A DNA stretch of 42,592 nucleotides from Solirubrobacteraceae bacterium (GTDB lineage Bacteria > Actinomycetota > Thermoleophilia > Solirubrobacterales > Solirubrobacteraceae), in assembly GCA_036403675.1 (NCBI GenBank), contig DASWQM010000196.1, positions 1 through 42,592 on the forward strand, in the 5' to 3' direction. Position 1 is the first letter of the stretch. Every line of letters starts with the position of its first letter. Both the position numbers and the translations under genes were made by a program. This document shows, piece after piece, positions 3,121-24,500 of the stretch. Under the pieces are notes generated by a model, which did not search any database, was not told where the DNA came from, and saw nothing but the letters and a program-made list of their open reading frames with translations.

Positions 3121-4131
3121 ATGAAGCCCCTCGTCACGCTCCTTGCAACGTCCGCCGTCGTCGCAGCCGCCGCCGCTCCCGCCACCGCGGCGCCGACGAC
3201 CATCGCCACGCTCCATGGCGAGACCGCCGTCCGTGCATTCAGCGGCGTCCAGTCCTGGAGCGACCTCGATCCCGCCGACAAGCAGTGGCACGTCATGGTC
3301 CGCAGCAACGGCCAGGTCACCCGCCCGCCGATCCCGGCGGCCAAGGACGCGATCGAGGTCGACGTCGGCCCCGGCGCCGGCGGTGCGCCCGTGCTCGCGT
3401 ACCTCAGCTGCACCGACACGTGCCGCGTCGTCGTCGCCGGCATCGACGGCGGCGCCCCGCAGGCCGTCGCCGGCAGTGAGGGCGCGTCGCATCCGACCGT
3501 CTGGCGCAACCGGGTCGCGTGGGTGCGCGGCAAGGCGACCGTCATGACCAGCACGCTTACGGCCAGCGGGCGCAAGGTGCTCGCCGGCGCGCCGCGGCGC
3601 AAGTGCTACCGGCCGTACACGGGCAAGCCGCGGCGCTGCGAACGCCCGCAGAACCCCTCGGTCGACGCGCTCGAGCTGTTCGGAAACCAGCTTGCGCTCG
3701 TCGACACGTACGGCCTCAAGGCGGCGACCGGGAACGGCACGACGGAGGTGCGCACCGAGTCGGTCAAGGGCGGCCCGCAGAAGCTCGTCGCGCTCAACGC
3801 GATCGGCGAGTCCGGCCAGACCTGGGTGGGACCGTCCTGGGCGAAGGGCAAGCTCTACTTCTACAAGTCGTGCTTCGGCGACCCCTCCGGCTGCGTCGGA
3901 GGGCGCGCGGGCGCCTTCGGCTACGACCCCGGAAGGAACACGTACGTCCACGCCGGCGGCTCGACCGTGCTCAGCGGCTTCGCGATGGACGACGACGGCA
4001 GCCGCGCCTACGAGGCGTCGGCGCCCGGATCCGGCCTGGCGTGCGACGACGCCGACGCCAAGTCGTGCCTGCTGCGGCTCACCGACCCGCTCCCGTTCGC
4101 GCCGACGCGCTCGCTCGTGGGCCAGCCGTAG
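3121..4131 (+). CDS. Secreted hypothetical protein
   Basis: 336 aa. It has an N-terminal signal peptide (MKPLVTLLATSAVVAAAAAPATAAP) and high third-position GC. I recognise no family. Confidence 0.6.
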   Translation: MKPLVTLLATSAVVAAAAAPATAAPTTIATLHGETAVRAFSGVQSWSDLDPADKQWHVMVRSNGQVTRPPIPAAKDAIEVDVGPGAGGAPVLAYLSCTDTCRVVVAGIDGGAPQAVAGSEGASHPTVWRNRVAWVRGKATVMTSTLTASGRKVLAGAPRRKCYRPYTGKPRRCERPQNPSVDALELFGNQLALVDTYGLKAATGNGTTEVRTESVKGGPQKLVALNAIGESGQTWVGPSWAKGKLYFYKSCFGDPSGCVGGRAGAFGYDPGRNTYVHAGGSTVLSGFAMDDDGSRAYEASAPGSGLACDDADAKSCLLRLTDPLPFAPTRSLVGQP

Positions 4132-11551: not shown

Positions 11552-13123
11552 CTAGTTCGGTCCCGCCGCGCCGTGATGGGCTGCGGGAGACAAAGATCCG
11601 TCCGGACCTTGTCCGCCGTTGCCGACGACACGGGCGCGGGCGCGCTCCAGCAGCGCCTCCTCCGCCCTCGCCAGCGCCTCGCGCCGCTGCGCGACGGAGG
11701 CCGCGAGGCCCGCCGCCCCAGCGCGGTCGGCGTCGAGCATCGCCTCCATCGGAGCCTCGGCCGCCCCGCCGGTGACGGTCCGCGTGGCGATCGCGGCGCG
11801 CGGGTTCAGCGCATCGGCGATGAGCGCGGGCGAGATCGTCAGCGACCGCCCGAGCACTTCCTGCGCGGCGCCGTCGAGCGCCTGCGCGTCGAGCGCCGCC
11901 GGTCCCGCGCCGCGCTCGATCGCGACGGCGACGGCACGCCCGACGACGCGGTAGCAGGCGCGGTAGTCCAGGCCGCTCGCCAGCATGACGGCGTCGGCGA
12001 GGTCCGCGGCGCCGGCAAAGCCCTCGTACAGCGGCCGCGCGAGCGCCGGCACGTCGAGCTCGAGGTGCTCGACGACGGCCGCCGCGAGGCTCACGGCGCC
12101 GGCCGCGAGCGTCACGGACTCGGCGCAGTCGCGGTAGGCGTAGAGCAGGTTGTCGGTGCGACCCGACGGCGTGCGCTGCGTCGCGGCCAGGCCGGCGGCG
12201 CGCCCGATGAGCGTGCCGGCGGCGCCGCGGACGACCGCCAGCGCGTACGGGTTGCGCTTCTGCGGCATGAGCGCGCTGGCGCGGCAGTGCTCGGCGGCGA
12301 GGCGGATGAAGCCGAACTGCTCGCTGGCGTAGATCTCGAGGTCCTCGGCCAGGCGGCTGGCGGTCGTCGCCGCCAGCGCGGCGTGGGAGACGAGTTCGAC
12401 GAGGCCGTCCGCCTGCCACATCGCGTCGCGCGTGTGGGTGATGACCGCGTCGAAGCCGAGGTCGCGCGCGAGAGCCCGGCGGTCGACGGGGACGCGCGAG
12501 CCGTTGACGCCGCCGGCGCCCGCGGGGCTCGCGTTGACCCAGTCGAAGTCGCGCCGCAGCCGCTCGCCGTCGCGCAGCGCGGGCGCGGCGAACGACAGCA
12601 GCCAGTGGCCGGCGGTCGTCGGCTGCGCGACCTGCAAATAGGTGAAGTCGGGCATCAGCGTCCCGACGTGACGCGCGGCCTGCTCGACGAGCGCCGCTGC
12701 GAGCCGCGCGACCGCCTCCTCGAGGTCCAGCACGAGCGCCCGCAGGCCGATCCGGAAGGCGATCCGCCCAGCCTCCCGCCGCGGCCTGCCGGCCGCCAGC
12801 CAGCCGCCGGCCGCGCCGATGCGCTGCTCGAGCCAGCGCTCGCGCAGGTTGTAGAGGTCGCCGTAGCGGGCGTCGGCGAGCGTCGCCGGATCGCGTTCGC
12901 GCAGGTCCAGCAGCGCGGCCAGCAGAACCTGCTCCTGGTCGGCGGGAACCACCCCGTGCTCGCCGAGTGACAGGACGTGCGCGATGTCGGCCAGGTCCAT
13001 GCCGGCGGCCAGCAGCTCGCTGTCGGCCAGCTCGCGCTGGTAGCCGGCGGCAACGAGCTCGGGCGCGGGGCCGGCGCCGATCCGCCCGGTCGCGCCGAGG
13101 TAGCCCTCGGGCAGCTCGCTCAC
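11552..13123 (-). CDS. Aspartase/fumarase-superfamily lyase, argininosuccinate-lyase-like (candidate XcbC/XcbD-type CoM biosynthesis enzyme)
   Basis: The GTG at 13123 overlaps the upstream stop (GTGA). 523 aa, with the superfamily signature SALMPQKRNP. The 959-aa track ORF is an artefact. Confidence 0.8.
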   Translation of the reverse strand: MSELPEGYLGATGRIGAGPAPELVAAGYQRELADSELLAAGMDLADIAHVLSLGEHGVVPADQEQVLLAALLDLRERDPATLADARYGDLYNLRERWLEQRIGAAGGWLAAGRPRREAGRIAFRIGLRALVLDLEEAVARLAAALVEQAARHVGTLMPDFTYLQVAQPTTAGHWLLSFAAPALRDGERLRRDFDWVNASPAGAGGVNGSRVPVDRRALARDLGFDAVITHTRDAMWQADGLVELVSHAALAATTASRLAEDLEIYASEQFGFIRLAAEHCRASALMPQKRNPYALAVVRGAAGTLIGRAAGLAATQRTPSGRTDNLLYAYRDCAESVTLAAGAVSLAAAVVEHLELDVPALARPLYEGFAGAADLADAVMLASGLDYRACYRVVGRAVAVAIERGAGPAALDAQALDGAAQEVLGRSLTISPALIADALNPRAAIATRTVTGGAAEAPMEAMLDADRAGAAGLAASVAQRREALARAEEALLERARARVVGNGGQGPDGSLSPAAHHGAAGPN

Positions 13124-14466
13124 GGCACGCCGCCCTCCGAGAGCACGCGGTCGACGAGCGCGATCGCCGGGCTCGCCGCCGTGACCGGGTCCAGCAGCCG
13201 GTCGAGCTCCTCCGCCGTCAGCGCGGCGGCGATCGCCGGCTCGGCCGTCAGCGCCTCGCGCAGCGTGCGGCCTTCGGCCTGGCCGCGCATCGAGGCGGCG
13301 TAGACGAGCTCGTGCGCGGTGTGCTTCCCGAGGCGGTCGGTCAGCGCGCGCATGACCGGCTCGGACTGCACCCAGCCACCCTGCGCGGCGACGTTGGCCG
13401 CCATCCGCTCGGCGTCGACCTCCAGGCCCTCGACGAGGTCGATCCCGAAGTGCAGCGCGGCGGCGGTCGCCACGCAGGCCTCGGGCAGGTAGGCCCACTC
13501 GGCCTTCCAAGCGGCGCCGTCGCGCTCGTGCTCGTGGACGACCCCCTCCAGCGCGAGCCCCGCGGCGCCGCGGACGACGCGCCAGAGCGTGCCGAGATGC
13601 TCGGACAGCTCGGGGTTGCGCTTGTGCGGCATCGTGATCGAGCCGACGAGCCCGCTGCGCGTGGCCTCGGCGAGCTCGCCGATCTCCGGTCGCTGCAGCT
13701 GGTAGACCTCGCGCCCGATCTTCGCCAGCGTCCCCGTGACGAGCGCCAGCAGGGTGAGGAACTCCGCGACCCGGTCGCGCGCCGTCAGCCACGTGACGTC
13801 GGGCGCCGCCAGCCCGAGGCGCTCGCACATCCTCCCCTGCAGCTCGAGCCCCGCGTCGCCCCAGAACGAGCACGTGCCGACGGCGCCCGCGAGCTGGCCG
13901 ACGGCCAGCCGCGGGCGGGCCTGGGCGACGCGCTCGCGATGGCGGCGCACCTCGGCGACCCAGACCGCAGCCTTGAAGCCGAACGTCACCGGCAGCCCCG
14001 GCTGCCCGTGCGTGCGGCCCAGCACGACGGTCGTGCGGTGCTCGCGCGCGAGCACCAGCAGCGCCCGCTCCAGGCGCTGCAGGTCGGTGGCCGTGTCGTC
14101 CAGGACGTCGCGCATGACGATGCCGGTCCAGCTGTCGGTGACATCCTGAACCGTCGCGCCCCAGTAGACCCACTCGCGGGCCGCGGGCGACAGGCGCGCC
14201 TGCCACGCGCGGATGAGCCCGAGCGTCGAGTGGCCGCTCGCGCGCGTGCCGGCGGCGACCTCCGCGAGGTCGAAGCCGTCCACGTCGGCGGTCGCCACGA
14301 TCTCCTCCGCGGCCGCCCGCGGCACGAGGCCGAGGTCGGCCTGCGCGGCGGCGAGCGCCGCCAGGACGTCGAGCCAGGCCTGCAGGCGGCCGCGCTCGCC
14401 GAAGCGCTCGCGCGCCGCGGGCGTGCTCCACAGGTGCTCGTAGACCACCGAGTCGATGATGTGCAT
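13120..14466 (-). CDS. Aspartase/fumarase-superfamily lyase, adenylosuccinate-lyase / carboxymuconate-cycloisomerase-like (candidate XcbC/XcbD-type)
   Basis: ATG at 14466 (MHIIDSVVYEHLW), 448 aa, with the signature GSITMPHKRNP. Confidence 0.8.
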   Translation of the reverse strand: MHIIDSVVYEHLWSTPAARERFGERGRLQAWLDVLAALAAAQADLGLVPRAAAEEIVATADVDGFDLAEVAAGTRASGHSTLGLIRAWQARLSPAAREWVYWGATVQDVTDSWTGIVMRDVLDDTATDLQRLERALLVLAREHRTTVVLGRTHGQPGLPVTFGFKAAVWVAEVRRHRERVAQARPRLAVGQLAGAVGTCSFWGDAGLELQGRMCERLGLAAPDVTWLTARDRVAEFLTLLALVTGTLAKIGREVYQLQRPEIGELAEATRSGLVGSITMPHKRNPELSEHLGTLWRVVRGAAGLALEGVVHEHERDGAAWKAEWAYLPEACVATAAALHFGIDLVEGLEVDAERMAANVAAQGGWVQSEPVMRALTDRLGKHTAHELVYAASMRGQAEGRTLREALTAEPAIAAALTAEELDRLLDPVTAASPAIALVDRVLSEGGVP

Positions 14467-14471
14467 GGCGC

Positions 14472-15365
14472 TCACGACGTCGGCACCGGCGTCCAGGCCG
14501 GGACGAGGAGGTGCAGCGCCTCGCGGACCTCCTCGAGCGTCGCGCCCCACGGCACGACCACGAGCGCGCCGTCGGACTCGATGCCGCGCTCGCGCAGGCA
14601 GCACTTCACGAGCGTCGGCTCCGTGCGCTCGTCCGCGCGCACGCGCGGGCACAGCTCCACCCGGGCCGCGGGCTCGGCGCCGTACAGCTCGCTGTGGATC
14701 TGGCGCGAGCGCTCGCAGCCGAGCAGCGTCCAGCCACCGTCCGGTGGCTCGGCCGGGCCGGAATCAAGGAAGTCGACCGGGCCGGCGAGCTCGAGCCCGC
14801 CGCAGCGGCAGGGCAGCAGCCAGTGCTCGGTCGCGACCTCCGCCGCGATCTCGTTGAGGTCGATCGCCTCCAGCTCGAGCGCGACCGGGTCGAGGTCCTC
14901 GTCGTACTCGAGCACGCGCCGGGCCATGTCGAGCAGCTTCGGCGGCGCGGGCGGGACGACCTCGACGACACGGATCCGGACCGGCGCCGGCTCGACGATG
15001 AGGTTGACGTGCTGGTTGCGCCCCTCGACGACGTAGACGCGCGCCGCCTGACCGCTGGCCGCTGCCGCGCGTGCCATCTGCGTGGCGTTGCCCGTGTCGA
15101 TCTGCGGGTCGCGCACGAACGCGGTCTCCTCGGGCCCCGAGACCCAGTGGATCTCGCTGACGGGCCAGAACAGGGCGTCGCCGGCGGGCTCCTTGTCGAC
15201 CGTCACGACCGCATGGCCCTCGTCGCCCTCGGCGATCAGCACCTCCGTGCGCCGGTATACGCGCCGGTTGACGAGGTGCTCGCGAACGGCGTCCTCGGTC
15301 AGCGCCACGCCGAGGCGCTGCACGCTCACGCCGCGGTACGGCCGGCAGATCCAGTTCGGGCGCAT
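14472..15365 (-). CDS. Hypothetical protein with a Cys-rich C-terminal half; no family recognised
   Basis: 297 aa from the ATG at 15365, which shares its A with the upstream TGA. Third-position GC is high. The gene is embedded in the operon, with a 5-nt gap to the next start. Cys motifs are LLPCRCGG, LLGCERS, ELCPR and VKCCL. Confidence 0.65.
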   Translation of the reverse strand: MRPNWICRPYRGVSVQRLGVALTEDAVREHLVNRRVYRRTEVLIAEGDEGHAVVTVDKEPAGDALFWPVSEIHWVSGPEETAFVRDPQIDTGNATQMARAAAASGQAARVYVVEGRNQHVNLIVEPAPVRIRVVEVVPPAPPKLLDMARRVLEYDEDLDPVALELEAIDLNEIAAEVATEHWLLPCRCGGLELAGPVDFLDSGPAEPPDGGWTLLGCERSRQIHSELYGAEPAARVELCPRVRADERTEPTLVKCCLRERGIESDGALVVVPWGATLEEVREALHLLVPAWTPVPTS

Positions 15366-16090
15366 CACACCGCCGTCCAGGCGCCGTCGATGACGAGCAT
15401 CGCGCCGTTCATGTACGCCAGCCGGTCCCCGGCGAGCAGCGCGACGGCATCGGCGATCTCCTCGGCGACCGCGACGCGCCCGGCCGGGATCCGGGTGAGC
15501 ACGTCGGCGCGCAGCTGCGGGTCCTCGAGGCGCCAGCGCGTCATCGGCGTGTCGACGATCCCCGGGCAGATCGCGTTGGCGCGGATGCCTCGTGCGGCGT
15601 AGTCGGCCGCCAGCGAGCGCGTGAGCTGCACGACGCCGCCCTTGGACGCGGAGTAGGCGCAGCGGCCGGGGAAGGCGACGAGGCCTGCGGCGGATGCGAC
15701 GTTGACGATCGAGCCGCCGCCACGCGCGAGCATTCCCGGCAGCGCCGCGCGGCAGACGAGAAACGGGCCGGTGAGGTTGACCTCGAGGACGCGGCGCCAC
15801 TCGTCGACCGGCGTCACGTCGCACTCGGCGGCCGCCGGCGACCCCGTGATGCCGGCGACGTTGACGACGGCGTCGAGCGGGCCGAGCTCCGCCTCGGCCC
15901 GGCCGACCGCGCGCTCGACGGCGTCGGCGTCGGTGACGTCCGCCGTGAGCGCGAGCGCGTCGAGATCGCGCAGGCGCGCGCCGTCGAGGTCGAGCGCGGC
16001 CACTGCCGTGCCGCCGGCCAGCAGGCGCTCGACGCAGGCGCGCCCGATGCCCGACGCGGCTCCGGTGACGAACGCGACCGCCGGCGTCAC
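15365..16090 (-). CDS. SDR with the 2-(R)-hydroxypropyl-CoM dehydrogenase-like residue pattern
   Basis: 241 aa, GTG start at 16090. TGAASGIG cofactor motif. Ser lies at Tyr-13 and the catalytic motif is YSASK. Arg lies at Tyr-3 (GRCAY) and at Tyr+41 (TPMTRWR), the same spacing I recall for S142/R152/Y155/K159/R196 of Xanthobacter R-HPCDH. Confidence 0.75.
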   Translation of the reverse strand: MTPAVAFVTGAASGIGRACVERLLAGGTAVAALDLDGARLRDLDALALTADVTDADAVERAVGRAEAELGPLDAVVNVAGITGSPAAAECDVTPVDEWRRVLEVNLTGPFLVCRAALPGMLARGGGSIVNVASAAGLVAFPGRCAYSASKGGVVQLTRSLAADYAARGIRANAICPGIVDTPMTRWRLEDPQLRADVLTRIPAGRVAVAEEIADAVALLAGDRLAYMNGAMLVIDGAWTAV

Positions 16091-16093
16091 GCC

Positions 16094-17866
16094 CTACGTC
16101 TCCTGGAGCTCGAGCGTGCGCAGGATGCTGATCGCCAGCTGCGCCTCGAAGCGATCGCGCTGGCGTGCGAAGTCGAGCTTCGCGAGGCCCTGGACCTTGT
16201 CGAGCCGGTAGCGCACCGTCTTCGGATGCACGAACATCGCCGCCGCCGTGCGCTGGAGGTTGCAGTCGTTGGCGAGGAACGCCTCGATCGTGTGCGTCAG
16301 GTCGCTGGGATGGTCGCGGTCGTAGTCGAGCACCCCGCCGAGGACGCGGCGCGCGAACTCGCGCAGGTCGCCACGGTCGCCGGGGGCGAGCAGGAAGCGC
16401 ATGACGCCGAGCTCGTCGAGCACGGCGACGTGATGGCAGCCCACATCCGTCGGCGCCGCGTTGAGGGCGACCTGCGCCTGGGCGAGCGCCTCGGGCAGGT
16501 CGGCGATGTCGGCGGCGCACGCGCTCACCCCGGCCGCCACGTCGATCTCCGGGAAGCGCTCGCCGAGCCGGTCGACGACGGCCTCGACGCTGGCGCGCGG
16601 ATCGTCGGTGGCGGGCAGCAGCAGCGCGATGAGCGAGCCCCGCGCCGCCGCCAGCGCGGCCTCGCCGCCCTGCGCCGTCGCGGCCCGCTCGGCGACCTGG
16701 GCGAGCGACTCGCGCAGCGCCAGCTGCGGCAGCGCGCCATCGCTCGACGCGTGGCGCGGGCGCGCCTGCGCGCGGATGAGCGCCACCCGCACCTTCTCCG
16801 GCAGCTCGAGGCGCAGCGCGCGCGCCCAGACGAGCGCCTCGGCGACGTCGGCGATCTTGCCGTCGAGCAGGTCCCAGAGGAAGTCCCCGCGGACCCTCGT
16901 GCGAGCCTGTAGCACCGCGCGCTCGCGCGTGAGCTCCAGCGCGCACATGATCGTCGCCTGCTCGACGAGCACGACGTCGAGCGGCACGGGCGGGTGGCGC
17001 AGCGCGACGCCGAGGTAGCCGAGCCGCTCGCCCCCGGCGAAGACGTCGCGGACGAGCAGGCGGTCGTCGGCGACGGGCCGGGGCGCCGCGATGCGCGCCG
17101 CCATCCGCGACTGGAGCGCCAGCCCCGCGGCACCGCTGGCGGCCATCACGCGGCAGCCGGTGTCGAGCGTCGCGACGTCGGCATCCAGCAGCCGCGCGAC
17201 GCCGTCGACGAGATCGGTGAGCGCGACGTCCTCCAGCACGAGCCGCATGAGCTCGTCGTGGACCTCGGTGGCGCGCTGCAGGACCTCGTTCTGCGTCTCG
17301 AGCCGCTGGTTGACGATCTGCAGGCCGTCGACGGTGCGGCGCTGCGCCTCGTAGAGCCGCGCGTTCTCGACGGCGATCGCGGCGAGGTTGGCGAGCGTCG
17401 TCATCGCCTGCACGTCGGCGGCGACGTAGGCGTCGGGCTGTCGCCGCCAGCTCATCGCCACGCCGATCGCGCGGCCGCGCACGGCCATCGGCGCGCCGAG
17501 CGCCGCCCGCGTGCCGTCGGCCTGCGCGATGTCCGCGAAGTCGCGCGAGATCCGCTGGTCGGACTGGTAGTCGTCGACGCGCACCGGGCGCCCCTCCTCG
17601 AAGACCTTGCCGGCGACGCCCTGCCCGCGGCCGACGACGAGGCGCGCCGTCCCGACGGTGCGATGTCCCGTGCAGGCCTGCATCCGCAGCGTCTCGCCGG
17701 TCTCGTCGGCGAGCAGGATGCCGGCGATGTCGGCGTTCGTCGTCGCGACGACGGCGTTGAGGACCGACAGCAGCGTGGTGTCGAGCTCGAGCGAGCTGAG
17801 GATGTCGGCGGCGACGCGCCCGAAGGCGCCGAGGCGTCCGGCCTCCAGGGTTGCGACGGGACCCAT
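16094..17866 (-). CDS. GAF-domain / PucR-family transcriptional regulator
   Basis: 590 aa. The N-terminal region is GAF-like (LLSVLNAVVATTNADIAGILLADETGETLRMQA...GVAGKV). The C-terminal PucR helix-turn-helix (HTH) is NLQRTAAAMFVHPKTVRYRLDKV. The stop lies 3 nt before the next gene's start. Confidence 0.85.
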   Translation of the reverse strand: MGPVATLEAGRLGAFGRVAADILSSLELDTTLLSVLNAVVATTNADIAGILLADETGETLRMQACTGHRTVGTARLVVGRGQGVAGKVFEEGRPVRVDDYQSDQRISRDFADIAQADGTRAALGAPMAVRGRAIGVAMSWRRQPDAYVAADVQAMTTLANLAAIAVENARLYEAQRRTVDGLQIVNQRLETQNEVLQRATEVHDELMRLVLEDVALTDLVDGVARLLDADVATLDTGCRVMAASGAAGLALQSRMAARIAAPRPVADDRLLVRDVFAGGERLGYLGVALRHPPVPLDVVLVEQATIMCALELTRERAVLQARTRVRGDFLWDLLDGKIADVAEALVWARALRLELPEKVRVALIRAQARPRHASSDGALPQLALRESLAQVAERAATAQGGEAALAAARGSLIALLLPATDDPRASVEAVVDRLGERFPEIDVAAGVSACAADIADLPEALAQAQVALNAAPTDVGCHHVAVLDELGVMRFLLAPGDRGDLREFARRVLGGVLDYDRDHPSDLTHTIEAFLANDCNLQRTAAAMFVHPKTVRYRLDKVQGLAKLDFARQRDRFEAQLAISILRTLELQET

Positions 17867-17996: not shown

Positions 17997-19547
17997 ATTC
18001 CCGAGCTTGACGTCGTCGGCTGGCGGTCCGCCATCGAGGATGCGCTGGGCCGTCCCGGCGCAGCCCCGATCCTCAACCTCGACGACGACGGCCGGGGGCC
18101 GTACGACGCGATCTTCGTCGGCGGCGGCGCCGCCGGGCGCTTCGGCGGCTCCTACCTGCGGGCGATGGGCGGGCGCGCGCTGATCGTCGACCGGTGGCCG
18201 TTCCTCGGCGGCAGCTGCCCGCATCAGGCGTGCGTGCCCCACCACCTCTTCTCCGAGGCGGCGGCTCTGCTCGACCGCGCGCGGTGGTTCTCCGGCGAGC
18301 TCTTCTTCCCCCCGTTCGACCCGGCGCGCGCGAGCATCCTGCAGCTCGTCGAGCTGTTCCGCGCCGGCCGCTCGACCGCGCACGCCTTCATGAACTGGCA
18401 GACCCAGGTCCAGCTCGAGGTCGAGTTCGTCCTCAACGCGGAGGCCGAGATCCTCGACGCCAACCGCGTGTCGGCGGCCGGCCGGACCTTCGAGGCCCGC
18501 AACCTCGTCATCGGGCTCGGCGCCTTCCAGAAGCCGCTGGAGATCCCGGGCGCCGACCTGCCCGGCGTGCACGACTGGGCGACGCTCGTCGAGGACCTCG
18601 ACTACGAGCCGACGCGCTGCGTGATCATCGGCGGCGGCAAGACGGCCGTCGAGTACGGCTCGTTCTTCCAATCGACCGGCTGCGCGACGACGATCGTCTC
18701 GCGCGCGCCGGTCATGCGGACGCGCAGCCTGCACCACGTCGACGAGGACATCCGCCGCTATGTCGTCGACGGCATGCGCGCCCGCGGCATGACGCTGCTC
18801 GAAGGCGCCCGCGTGATCGCGCTCGAGGGCGACGGCGTGGTCGAGCGTGCGCTCGTCAGCCATCCCGACGGCCGGGTGGAGGCGATCGAGTGCGACTTCG
18901 TCTTCAACTGCACCGGCGAGCGCGCCAACAGCGAGGCGGCCGTGCGCGCGCTCGGGCTGGCGACCGGTCCGGGCGGAGAGATCCTCGTCGACGACCGGAT
19001 GCGCACGAGCGTCGACGGCGTCTACGCCGCAGGCGACGTCATCGGATCGCCGATGGAGATGTTCAAGGCGCGCAAGTGCGGCATGACGGCGGCACGCAAC
19101 GTCATGGGCGAGGACTACACGTTCGACTTCAGCGAGTACCCCGACTTCCTCCACACGACCTACGAGGTCAGCTGGGTCGGGCTGAGCGAGGAGGAGGCGC
19201 GCGAGCGCCACGACGACATCGCGGTGATCCGCATGCCGCCCAAGGGGCAGGAGCGCGACAACCCGCTGCCCTGCGCCGAGGGGACGATGCTCTACGCCTT
19301 TGCCAAGCCGGAGCTCTCCGGCCTGCAGAAGTGCATCGTCGACTCCGGATCTCGGCGTATCATCGGTTTCCACCATGTCGGCTACGGGGCCAAGGACGCC
19401 TTCCAGTACCTCGACGCCCTCCTGCGCCGTCCCCAGGGGCTGACGATCGATGAGCTCGGGGAGATGAACGAGCTGTTCCTCAACCCGGAGCACTTCATCC
19501 AGCTCTCGCGCCTGCGGGCCGGACGGCGAGAGCTGGTGGATCTTTGA
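17997..19547 (+). CDS. xecC: 2-oxopropyl-CoM reductase (carboxylating), 2-KPCC-like flavoprotein disulfide oxidoreductase
   Basis: Motifs: YDAIFVGGGAAGRFGGSYLRAMGGRALIVDRWPFLGGSCPHQACVPHHLF, GGGKTAVEYG, PMEMFKARK, YPDFLHTTYEVSWVG, HHVGYGAKDAFQYL and the C-terminal ELFLNPEHFIQLSRLRAG. These closely follow my recollection of Xanthobacter 2-KPCC. The 5' end is uncertain. Homology extends upstream of the first ATG (18165), and there is no in-frame ATG, GTG or TTG after the stop at 17877. I propose the ATT at 17997, which follows GAGGAGGA. Confidence 0.85.
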   Translation: MPELDVVGWRSAIEDALGRPGAAPILNLDDDGRGPYDAIFVGGGAAGRFGGSYLRAMGGRALIVDRWPFLGGSCPHQACVPHHLFSEAAALLDRARWFSGELFFPPFDPARASILQLVELFRAGRSTAHAFMNWQTQVQLEVEFVLNAEAEILDANRVSAAGRTFEARNLVIGLGAFQKPLEIPGADLPGVHDWATLVEDLDYEPTRCVIIGGGKTAVEYGSFFQSTGCATTIVSRAPVMRTRSLHHVDEDIRRYVVDGMRARGMTLLEGARVIALEGDGVVERALVSHPDGRVEAIECDFVFNCTGERANSEAAVRALGLATGPGGEILVDDRMRTSVDGVYAAGDVIGSPMEMFKARKCGMTAARNVMGEDYTFDFSEYPDFLHTTYEVSWVGLSEEEARERHDDIAVIRMPPKGQERDNPLPCAEGTMLYAFAKPELSGLQKCIVDSGSRRIIGFHHVGYGAKDAFQYLDALLRRPQGLTIDELGEMNELFLNPEHFIQLSRLRAGRRELVDL

Positions 19548-20386
19548 GCTCCGACCACGCGCTCACCGGCGGGCAGATCGCCCGCTTCGCCATCAAGCGG
19601 CCCGGCGGCGCCACGCCGGGCTTCCTCGAGCTGCCCGACCGCACGGTCAAGCCGCGCGCCGCCGGCGTCACGCACGTGCTCGACAAGGGGCTGACGCTCG
19701 TGGAGCTCGACGGGCTGCTCGGCTCGGCCGGACCGCACATCGACTTCGTCAAGCTCGGCTGGGGCACGGCCTACGTCTCGGCCGACGTCTCGGCGAAGGT
19801 CGCCCACTGCGATCGCGCGAACGTCGGCGCGTGCCTCGGCGGCACGCTGCTGGAACTGGCCTGGGCGCAGGGGCGCATGGCGCAGTACGTGCACTGGGCG
19901 CACGGCATCGGCGTCTCCTGCGTCGAGGTCTCGAACGGCTCGGTCGGCATGTCCCCCGCCGAGAAGCGCCGGCTGATCCAGGAGCTCGCGGAGGAGTTCG
20001 AGGTCCTCGCCGAGGTCGGCTCCAAGCGGCCGGGACCGGTCGACGTGCGCAGCTGGTGCGACGAGCTGGCGCGCGACCTCGACGCCGGCGCGAGCTGGCT
20101 CGTCACCGAGGGACGCGAGAGCGGCACGGTCGGGCTGTTCGAGCCCAACGGAGACGTGCGCGTGGAGCTCGTGGACGCGATCGCCGCAGCCGTGCCGGTC
20201 GACCGGGTGATCTTCGAGGCGCCGCTGAAGGCGCAGCAGGCGGTCCTCATCCACCTCGTCGGCCCGAACGTCGGGCTCGGCAACATCGCTCCCGGGGAGG
20301 CGCTGTCGGTGGAGACGCTGCGGCGTGGCCTGCGAACCGACACGATCGACCTCGCGCTTCCCGAGCTCGACCGGCTGCCCGTCTAG
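19544..20386 (+). CDS. comA: (2R)-phospho-3-sulfolactate synthase (ComA / XcbB-like)
   Basis: 280 aa. The motifs HIDFVKLGWGTAYV, GGTLLE, VEVSNGS, EVGSK, DLDAGASWLVTEGRESG, IFEAPLKAQQ and VETLRRGLRTDT align with archaeal ComA. The TTG start overlaps the upstream TGA (TTGA). Confidence 0.9.
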   Translation: MSSDHALTGGQIARFAIKRPGGATPGFLELPDRTVKPRAAGVTHVLDKGLTLVELDGLLGSAGPHIDFVKLGWGTAYVSADVSAKVAHCDRANVGACLGGTLLELAWAQGRMAQYVHWAHGIGVSCVEVSNGSVGMSPAEKRRLIQELAEEFEVLAEVGSKRPGPVDVRSWCDELARDLDAGASWLVTEGRESGTVGLFEPNGDVRVELVDAIAAAVPVDRVIFEAPLKAQQAVLIHLVGPNVGLGNIAPGEALSVETLRRGLRTDTIDLALPELDRLPV

Positions 20387-20489: not shown

Positions 20490-20948
20490 TCAGCTGCAAT
20501 TGTGCTGGCCGTGCTTGACCCTCTCCGGCGCTGCGAGCGGCGTCGGGGCGACCAGGACGTTGATCCCGAGGCAATCGCCGTCGTGGTAGTACTCGGTGGC
20601 GGCGATCGCAAAAGCTCCGGCCGAGGCAAGGATCGCGCCCCTACAGACGGTCTTCACGATCGGAAGGTCTACGGGGTCACACGCCGCTGAGGCGATACCG
20701 GTGACGATCCCCGTGACGGTCCCGGCGTTGCGAGTCGTGGCCCGGTTGAGCCGGATCGTGCAGTTGGGGGGCAGCAACCCACAGCTCGTGTCGAATGGCG
20801 CGCTGAGGATCACCGCCTGTGGCTCCGGCGCGTGGCCCGCGGCCTGCTGCCCAGCGCTTGCGGCGGCGGGCCCCCCCAGCATGAGCGGCAGCGCGACCGC
20901 CAGGGCGGCCGCCTTCCAAGACCTGCGTACCGTGTTGCGATCGAACAT
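20490..20948 (-). CDS. Small secreted Cys-containing protein (hypothetical)
   Basis: The ATG at 20948 is preceded by GAAGGAGG. 152 aa, with an RR-containing signal peptide MFDRNTVRRSWKAAALAVALPLMLGGPAAASA and 6 Cys in the mature part. Confidence 0.6.
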   Translation of the reverse strand: MFDRNTVRRSWKAAALAVALPLMLGGPAAASAGQQAAGHAPEPQAVILSAPFDTSCGLLPPNCTIRLNRATTRNAGTVTGIVTGIASAACDPVDLPIVKTVCRGAILASAGAFAIAATEYYHDGDCLGINVLVAPTPLAAPERVKHGQHNCS

Positions 20949-21077
20949 CCGAACCTCCTTCGGGTGGATTTTGTTTCCCCGCACACCACAAGGCGGGGGT
21001 TCACCAAAGGACCCTCAGACTTTTCGACGACCCGCCGGAACCGGGCTACGCCGGCGAGGGCGCCGGCCCGTGACGCG
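20901..21077 (-). repeat. Copy 1 of a ~175-nt duplicated module (vestigial gene 3' end + leader + SD + first ~16 codons)
   Basis: It aligns by eye along its whole length with 22103-22278, with most positions identical. Shared blocks include CGGCGGGTCGTCGAAA, CCCCCGCC, GGTGTGCGGGG, CCCGAAGGAGG and ATGTTC. Confidence 0.8.
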
Positions 21078-21081
21078 CGCG

Positions 21082-21684
21082 CTACCTGGGCGAAAGCTCC
21101 GGACAGCCCGGCGGCAGTCCGGGCGGCAGCGGCTGCGTGCGTACCGGCCGTCCGGCGGGCGTGACCCACACGAGCGCGCGCAGCGGGGCCATGCCGGGGC
21201 CGATCCGCGTCGTGAGCGCGAACACCCGGCGGACTGCCGTCACACTGATCGGCGCCGCGCCGCCGCGCACGAGGCGGACGGACCAGACGGCGTGCGGGAC
21301 AATGCCGAACACGGTTCGTATACCGTGGTTCGCGTTGCAGCGGTCGAAGACGTTGACCGCCCGCCCCGTGCGGATGTCGCTCGTCCGGTAGCAGTGCCAC
21401 ATGAGCACGCGCCCGCGCCGGTTCGCGAACACCCCGCACGCCTGCCCGGCGGTATGCCCGAGACCGACCGAGTACCCCGAGCCAAGTCGAAACAGACGCC
21501 GCGTATGGGCGGGCGGCAGCGCCGTCGCCGGCGAGTCGCCGGCCCGGGCCGTCGACACGCGCGGATGACCGGCCGACGTGACCGGGTCGGCTGACCGACC
21601 CGGATCGCCGGGCGCTCGGCCGCCGCACGCCGTCATCAGCACGGCGGCGGCTGCCAGCCCGGCAAGCGCCGGAGTGCGCTTCAC
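21082..21684 (-). CDS. Putative lipoprotein (hypothetical)
   Basis: 200 aa, GTG start. The signal peptide has a lipobox-like LMTAC. I recognise no family. Confidence 0.55.
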   Translation of the reverse strand: MKRTPALAGLAAAAVLMTACGGRAPGDPGRSADPVTSAGHPRVSTARAGDSPATALPPAHTRRLFRLGSGYSVGLGHTAGQACGVFANRRGRVLMWHCYRTSDIRTGRAVNVFDRCNANHGIRTVFGIVPHAVWSVRLVRGGAAPISVTAVRRVFALTTRIGPGMAPLRALVWVTPAGRPVRTQPLPPGLPPGCPELSPR

Positions 21685-22150: not shown

Positions 22151-22278
22151 CGGACCTCCTTCGGGTTTGGGCTTTGTTCCCCCGCACACCAGAGGCGGGG
22201 GCCCACCGAAGGCCCCTCATGATTTCGACGACCCGCCGGATGGAGCTACGCCAGCGATGCCGCCAGCGCCGTGACCGC
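22103..22278 (-). repeat. Copy 2 of the duplicated leader/signal module
   Basis: See copy 1. Its upstream end is the genuine 3' end of the TauE-family gene (stop at 22246-22248). Confidence 0.8.
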
Positions 22279-22970
22279 GGTGACCGCCAGCACGGCGAGC
22301 ACCGCGCGCTCGTAACGCTCGCCGCGCAGGCGGCCGAACGCGCGCCGGCCGAGCAGCTGGCCGGCGAGACCGGCGAGCAGCAGCAGCCAGACCGCGTCTG
22401 GCAGCGCGAACGTTCCGGTCAGCACTAGCGCGGGCAGCCCGAGCACGGCGTGCACGAGGAAGATGGCGGCCAGCGTGTCGCGCATCTGCGCCGGCGACGC
22501 GCCGCGCGCGAGCAGGCAGAAGACGAGCGGCGGGCCGTTCAGCGACGTCGCAGTCGACAGCGCGCCGCCGGTGATCCCCGCCGCCGGAAGCTGCCACGCG
22601 CGCGGGCGTGCGGTCGCGGCCGTGCGCCGTCCCGGCACGCGCAGCGCCAGCCCGCCGAGCACCGCCACCGCGACGAGCCCCGACAGGGCCTGCTCGGACA
22701 GCTCGCGCAGCGCGAACGCGCCGATCGCCAGCCCCGGCAGCGACCACGCCAGCAGCGCCGACGCGTCGCCGCGGCGAACCTGCGGCCGGCGGCGCTCGCC
22801 CGCGAGCGTCACGACGTTCAGCGCCATCGCGACCAGCACGCCCGCCGTCACCGCCTCCCGCGGGCCGAGCAGCGCGAAGAGGATCGGAGCCGACACGAGC
22901 GCGAAGCCGAAGCCCGTCGCCGACTGCAGGGCGGCACCGGCCAAGAGCGCCAGCGCAGCGCCGGCGACCG

Positions 22971-22974
<4 letters not shown>
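22246..22974 (-). CDS. TauE/SafE-family (DUF81) membrane anion/sulfite-type exporter
   Basis: 242 aa and polytopic. The N-terminus LQSATGFGFALVSAPIL is typical of the family. The GTG start overlaps the gpmI stop (GTGA). Confidence 0.75.

Positions 22975-24496
<1,522 letters not shown>

Positions 24497-24500
<4 letters not shown>

Follow-up and report, generated by a model that had tools for sequence, protein, structure and literature searches.

A cluster of genes predicted to encode coenzyme M (CoM) biosynthesis contains a cysteine-rich ORF of 297 amino acids (aa) at positions 14472 to 15365 (minus strand) of a 42,592-nucleotide stretch of Solirubrobacteraceae DNA, which is referred to here as the window. 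What does this ORF contribute to CoM synthesis, and how does it fit a cluster in which one gene of the known pathway is missing? Based on sequence similarity, the ORF is predicted to encode a clear XcbA orthologue of the CoM reductase family. We put the probability at roughly 0.88 that its product carries out the last step of CoM synthesis and serves a CoM-dependent epoxide pathway. The enzyme has been known since 2022, and the gene is ordinary apart from the absence of xcbE from its cluster; taken alone, it amounts to a routine annotation: an uncultured soil actinobacterium encodes the last enzyme of bacterial CoM synthesis.

Gene structure and coding potential

The GC contents of the three codon positions of the ORF were 0.775, 0.477, and 0.960 (GC3, 0.96), which is typical of coding sequence in a window with 73% GC. 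The length of the frame is in itself no evidence of a gene, because the frame remains open for 1673 codons; a random open frame of 297 codons at the GC content of the window has a probability of ~0.009. The status of the ORF as a gene is based on the codon-position GC and on homology. Long open frames occur in every frame at 73% GC, so that a frame may stay open by chance or as an antisense shadow, but this has a negligible probability as an explanation of the ORF: the codon-position GC, a 350-bit match to the curated family NF052538, and more than 2,000 homologues speak against it, and at the level of sequence the homology results have already refuted it. The plus-strand translation of the same positions is an Arg/Ala-rich shadow frame and was rejected; the gene lies on the minus strand.

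The first-pass annotation had described the ORF as strongly coding by third-position GC and as coupled to its neighbors on both sides, and both descriptions were borne out. Base 15365 is common to the stop codon of the upstream SDR gene (TGA, 15367 to 15365) and the ATG of xcbA (15365 to 15363), which form a TGATG junction. On the other side, the xcbA stop codon (TGA, 14474 to 14472) is separated by five bases (14467 to 14471) from the next ATG (14466). An in-frame GTG at 15368, one codon upstream of the ATG, would make a GTGA overlap. Because this GTG corresponds to the start position of close homologues (MIRPNW...), the true start of xcbA may be 15368, giving a protein of 298 aa.

Family assignment and the characterized enzyme

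The predicted protein matched NCBIfam NF052538 ("XcbA family"; CoM_XcbA_fam) with 350.6 bits (cut-off, 150), the match spanning residues 2 to 288 and model positions 5 to 289 of 293. It also matched Pfam PF24830 (DUF7714) with 275.2 bits (cut-off, 25; positions 2 to 280 of 280). BLASTP against XcbA of Xanthobacter autotrophicus Py2 gave 44% identity and 59% positives over 293 aa (E = 3e-75) and aligned C186, C217, C239, C255, and C256. When 56 members were scanned for remote Pfam links (e.g., COG1900/HcyBio) at E values up to 1, only DUF7714 was matched. The family is compact: among 1.8 billion representatives, it comprises 440 clusters at the 50% identity level. The earlier statements that no family could be recognized and that the window lacks the reductase of the pathway were not supported, as the ORF itself belongs to the family of the known reductase.

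The Py2 protein (XAUT_RS25610) was located on pXAUT01 as an ORF with the N-terminus MNKPEKIEPKPIA, as encoded by the published cloning primer. This plasmid holds three xcbA copies, and the copy beside xcbB1 is frameshifted. The copy upstream of xcbB1 (pXAUT01 positions 85918 to 86783; L086/L089/L090) is split into two pieces, and the intact copies lie at 271442 to 272311 and 293908 to 294771. Since the copy at 271442 to 272311 carries the primer-encoded N-terminus, the biochemically studied XcbA is an intact copy.

Py2 XcbA was purified by Wu et al. (PNAS 2022; PMC9457059) and contains a redox-active [2Fe-2S] cluster (EPR g = 1.89, 1.96, and 2.03; E = -372 mV). The PLP enzyme XcbE forms sulfoethanethioaldehyde, and Py2 XcbA converts this compound to CoM as the completing step of a bacterial pathway that runs in the order XcbB, XcbC, XcbD, XcbE, and XcbA; thiolation in the characterized pathway is carried out by XcbD and XcbE and reduction by XcbA (PMC9457059). 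The mechanism of the window protein is most likely that of the Py2 enzyme. By analogy, the window protein would carry a [2Fe-2S] cluster and would use two electrons to reduce sulfoethanethioaldehyde to 2-mercaptoethanesulfonate (CoM). Of the roles that the first-pass annotation had proposed, a redox step in CoM synthesis is supported by the characterized homologue, a [2Fe-2S] reductase (PMC9457059). A sulfur insertion step finds no support, given that the homologue reduces and that XcbD and XcbE thiolate, and a role as an accessory factor of the epoxide pathway gained none from any result.

Conserved cysteines and predicted structure

The window XcbA contains seven cysteines (residues 7, 186, 188, 217, 239, 255, and 256), six of them within residues 186 to 256, in the motifs LLPCRCGG (at residue 183), LLGCERS (214), ELCPR (237), and VKCCL (253). 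Among 56 diverse members (25 to 83% identity), the invariant columns were P138, P139, C186, G216, C217, C239, and C255, and C256 was conserved in at least 90%. Across 78 locus-derived XcbA sequences, including that of Py2, C186, C217, C239, C255, and C256 were 100% conserved, as were H119 and S220, and H224 was conserved with one exception; C7 and C188 were not conserved. Py2 XcbA has nine cysteines, for which no recognizable cluster-binding motif was noted (PMC9457059), and five of the nine are common to the window XcbA.

Because only five cysteines occur family-wide, a concrete ligand assignment can be proposed: C186, C217, C239, and C255 are candidate ligands of the [2Fe-2S] cluster, and C256, which adjoins C255, is a candidate redox or substrate-contacting thiol. 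Alternatively, three cysteines and one histidine could ligate the cluster, with the cysteine pair left free. Either way, conservation provides a testable ligand and active-site set of four invariant cysteines and one that is nearly invariant. The suggestion that the clustered cysteines bind a metal or an Fe-S cluster thus stands, given the invariant cysteines and the [2Fe-2S] homologue; the suggestion that they carry persulfide sulfur received no support.

An AlphaFold2 model based on the 56-sequence alignment had a pLDDT of 95.6 and a pTM of 0.91, and the N-terminal domain modeled separately had a pLDDT of 96.3. In the model, a small beta-rich N-terminal domain is predicted to precede a flavodoxin-like C-terminal domain. 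Secondary structure assignment by DSSP placed the conserved cysteines after strands 182 to 184, 213 to 216, and 234 to 237 and at the end of strand 251 to 255, so that they would lie at the C-terminal ends of successive strands in the flavodoxin-like domain, a placement consistent with one site.

In Foldseek searches of the PDB, neither the full-length model nor the N-terminal domain had a match at E ≤ 0.001, and a PDB sequence search found nothing (best E value, 0.27). The best VIA-align Z score for residues 126 to 294 was 6.1, to generic alpha/beta domains (HypD, 4.6), and that for residues 1 to 127 was 4.0. For the N-terminal domain, matches with Z scores of 2.3 to 4.0 recurred among PUA-like barrels (ASCH, YTH, RsmE-N, and Lon-N); for the C-terminal domain, matches with Z scores of ~5 to 6 were to generic flavodoxin-like, Rossmann-like, and periplasmic-binding-protein-like folds. 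These matches are weak or generic and do not rise above background, and they were set aside as leads only. As modeled, XcbA is without a convincing relative among solved structures. The structure prediction that had been proposed as a check thus gave a confident model but no convincing relative in the PDB, and for that reason XcbA is a structural target worth solving.

Gene neighborhood

The gene downstream of xcbA was annotated as xcbD, encoding 3-sulfopropionylcysteine synthase (positions 13120 to 14466, minus strand; NF052536, 656 bits; cut-off, 600), and is followed by an xcbC-like gene for a phosphosulfolactate phosphate-eliminating lyase (11552 to 13123, minus strand; NF052535, 471 bits; cut-off, 575). 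Directly upstream of xcbA lies an SDR gene (15365 to 16090, minus strand; adh_short_C2, 201 bits), preceded by the first gene of the operon, which is predicted to encode a GAF-PucR regulator with GAF_2, GGDEF_2, and HTH_30 domains (16094 to 17866, minus strand). The minus-strand order is therefore the regulator, the SDR, xcbA, xcbD, the xcbC-like gene, and a second SDR, continuing with two CoA-transferase subunits, an ADP-forming acyl-CoA synthetase, a MetE-like gene, and an aldehyde dehydrogenase. The divergent operon contains a disulfide oxidoreductase gene (2-KPCC-like) and, behind it, the xcbB/comA gene for phosphosulfolactate synthase (19544 to 20386, plus strand; TIGR03849, 230.9 bits; cut-off, 280). 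The direct succession of xcbA and xcbD is the arrangement of actinobacterial loci, and the regulator-first order was kept in loci L004 to L007. The nearest named homologues of the window XcbA are from Solirubrobacteraceae.

In the proposed arrangement, xcbA shares an operon with xcbD and xcbC, facing the divergent operon of the 2-KPCC-like gene and comA/xcbB. The CoM made through XcbA would serve the epoxide pathway predicted to be encoded alongside, with an epoxyalkane:CoM transferase, SDRs, and the 2-KPCC-like enzyme. No monooxygenase gene was found among the window genes scanned. ORFs at 3121 to 4131, 20490 to 20984, and 21082 to 21684, considered as candidate thiolation genes, had no Pfam match and were not conserved in related loci. 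Since XcbC and ComA score below the NCBIfam equivalog cut-offs, the CoM pathway here is in its entirety a diverged version, a point against the XcbA reading. XcbD and XcbA pass their NCBIfam cut-offs, the XcbC-like protein and ComA fall below theirs, and no actinobacterial XcbE reached 450 bits; the curated cut-offs seem to miss actinobacterial members.

The flanks consist of chromosomal housekeeping genes (TauE, iPGM, tpi, pgk, gap, rapZ, and uvrC), and the host MAG comprises 3.3 Mb at 81% completeness. A gene of the TauE/SafE sulfite exporter family overlaps by 4 nucleotides (nt) with a gene for a cofactor-independent phosphoglycerate mutase (22246 to 24500); this pair separates the CoM cluster from tpi-pgk-gap and also occurs in L004. 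It is a candidate source of sulfite handling and of PEP precursors for ComA.

Distribution and co-occurrence with CoM genes

Among 185,579 species genomes scanned, 318 encode an XcbA relative, and these 318 species-level genomes include Solirubrobacteraceae, Acidimicrobiia, Chloroflexota, and methanotrophs. The loci of the best 80 of the 318 relatives, from named genomes, were examined with flanks of up to 10 kb. XcbB, XcbC, or XcbD was encoded within the fetched flanks in 78 of these 80; in the remaining two, xcbA lies close to the end of a short contig. A distant member, with 30% identity, is encoded in a ComA-lyase-lyase-PALP-DUF7714 cluster. Across the phylum, XcbA scored over its cut-off in 11 of 401 sampled genomes, and exactly these 11 also had XcbD, which either exceeded its cut-off or was truncated at the end of a contig. 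Homologues were thus confined to genomes or loci with CoM genes (11/11 and 78/80), the co-occurrence that had been proposed as a check on a role in CoM synthesis. Given this co-occurrence and the compactness of the family, the XcbA family is therefore tied to CoM biosynthesis. Its distribution is wider than the characterized system, and because it is found with CoM genes, XcbA can serve as a specific marker for bacterial CoM synthesis.

Several loci were from methanotrophs. Loci L062 to L068, L078, and L080 (Methylocystis, Methylocella, Methylococcales, and Methylumidiphilus) have xcbA-B-C-D-E, the Xanthobacter order, often with genes for an epoxyalkane:CoM transferase and a 2-KPCC homologue nearby. 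These loci fit the published observation on Methylohalobius crimeensis (PMC11507031). A DUF7714 member 27% identical to the window XcbA was found at the start of a contig in a "Candidatus Thermoplasmatota" MAG (L091, 379 to 1218), where it adjoins genes for large PKD/CARDB surface proteins; no CoM gene was seen on this contig, which is 8.8 kb long. The control genome of Methanosarcina acetivorans gave a subthreshold match to the XcbA model.

Absence of XcbE and alternative explanations

A point against the XcbA reading is that XcbE, which makes the substrate of XcbA in the defined pathway, is not in the window. The xcbD stop codon and the GTG start of the xcbC-like gene overlap by 4 nt, which leaves no room for xcbE between them. 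XcbE was absent from the window as a whole, as the first-pass annotation had noted of the PLP thiolation enzyme, and its best match in the MAG (81% complete) reached 38 bits (cut-off, 450). In the phylum sample, each of the ten further genomes positive for XcbA has an XcbE-like gene directly after xcbD, with 302 to 340 bits; these are the ten best XcbE scores in that sample and lie below the NCBIfam cut-off of 450. In L004, the closest named relative, whose XcbA is 83% identical to that of the window and which shares the tpi-iPGM-TauE context, xcbE lies between xcbD and xcbC.

The absence recurs. Of the 80 best loci, 28 contained XcbA, XcbD, and XcbC and no XcbE in flanks of up to 10 kb, and no XcbE-like gene was present anywhere in the genomes of Solirubrobacter soli DSM 22325, Conexibacter sp. 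CPCC 206217, or two MAGs (best match, 97 bits). For the window and its four closest relatives (L004 to L007), dN/dS of XcbA was 0.21 to 0.31 and did not differ between pairs with and without XcbE, so that XcbA remains under purifying selection in clusters without XcbE. In the Solirubrobacterales-type clade, many clusters and entire isolate genomes have lost xcbE but retain xcbA-xcbD-xcbC(-xcbB) under selection. This repeated absence of XcbE beside a conserved XcbA calls into question the universality of the published five-enzyme pathway.

The additional cysteine C188 (PCRC) was present in 23 of 27 loci without XcbE versus 3 of 38 loci with it. As a marker of XcbE loss, it was rejected as phylogenetically confounded. 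It is not tied to the loss, being a clade trait that occurs in the XcbE-containing loci L004, L019, and L021 and is absent from the XcbE-less loci L007 and L048, and it does not speak for a new function.

With xcbE missing, the thioaldehyde would have to be supplied by a non-orthologous C-S lyase or by an xcbE located on a contig that was not assembled; that XcbA has a modified role is less likely. Such a role would place XcbA in an XcbE-independent variant of the pathway, with a substrate or function different from that of the Xanthobacter enzyme; for example, XcbA might reduce or resolve another sulfur intermediate, formed from 3-sulfopropionylcysteine by a housekeeping C-S lyase, or might itself take part in C-S cleavage. 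The 28 loci and the whole genomes without XcbE, the purifying selection on XcbA in such clusters, and the presence of C188 in the clade that holds almost all of the XcbE-less loci are in its favor. We nevertheless consider this variant improbable, as C188 follows the clade and not the loss, xcbE is present in the same chromosomal context in L004, whose XcbA shares 83% identity with the window XcbA, no domain has been gained, and any PLP C-S lyase encoded elsewhere in the genome could substitute for XcbE. For the Solirubrobacterales-type clade as a whole, a four-enzyme CoM route that dispenses with a dedicated PLP lyase and in which XcbA, carrying the clade-specific Cys-x-Cys, acts on a different sulfur intermediate is doubtful.

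That the CoM genes, including xcbA, are decaying remnants left after the loss of xcbE, with CoM imported or unused, is very improbable. It would account for the absence of xcbE from the window and the MAG and for the scores of XcbC and ComA below the curated cut-offs, but all of the genes are intact and tightly coupled, and XcbA retains all five conserved cysteines and has a dN/dS of 0.25 to 0.31. The XcbE-less arrangement moreover persists across many species-level genomes, unlike what would be expected of decay. The preferred reading thus remains an XcbA orthologue that completes CoM synthesis.

Comparison with known systems

The closest characterized counterpart of the window XcbA is that of Py2, which belongs to the same NCBIfam and Pfam families, shares 44% full-length identity and five aligned cysteines, and is likewise encoded with xcbB, xcbC, and xcbD beside genes of a CoM-dependent epoxide pathway. 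The two systems differ in gene order (A-D-C, with B in a divergent operon, in the window; A-B-C-D-E in Py2), in phylum, in the lack of xcbE from the window cluster, and at residue 188, which is Cys in the window XcbA and Ser in Py2.

In Mycolicibacterium spp. and Nocardioides sp. JS614, the vinyl-chloride clusters encode a hypothetical protein of ~308 aa named "xcbF1" (PMC8727900), which, like the window xcbA, sits inside an actinobacterial CoM biosynthetic cluster. Hypothetical proteins 46 to 49% identical were found by tblastn on pNOCA01 and on Mycolicibacterium chubuense NBB4 plasmids, and from its size and position we infer that xcbF1 is XcbA. Those clusters are plasmid-borne, contain xcbE, and lie beside etnABCD alkene monooxygenase genes, whereas the window cluster is chromosomal and next to tpi-pgk-gap and uvrC.

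Two further enzymes resemble XcbA in chemistry or in pathway position. Ferredoxin:thioredoxin reductase, an analogy drawn by Wu et al. (PMC9457059), likewise combines an Fe-S cluster with cysteine thiol chemistry in a two-electron reaction, but its cluster is [4Fe-4S] and that of XcbA is [2Fe-2S]; it showed no sequence or fold similarity to XcbA, for which all PDB matches were weak (best Z score, 6.1). MMP16/ComF, the archaeal CoM synthase composed of COG1900 and a ferredoxin domain (PMC11844431), is, like XcbA, a metalloprotein that forms the thiol of CoM at the end of the biosynthetic pathway, but its chemistry differs, being the thiolation of sulfoacetaldehyde. No family link between it and XcbA was found, the 56 XcbA members matching only DUF7714 in Pfam at E values up to 1.

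A recurrent gene block was observed among the Solirubrobacteraceae. Approximately 21 loci (L013 to L041 and L048; e.g., L024, 2 to 9986, and L015, 2339 to 8761) have xcbA-xcbD-xcbC with xcbB nearby and no xcbE, epoxyalkane:CoM transferase, or 2-KPCC gene within flanks of up to 10 kb. Upstream, these loci share a conserved block that encodes an amidohydrolase, a radical SAM protein, a GNAT protein, an AIR-synthase-related protein, an AllG-like protein, and a cupin-HTH regulator.
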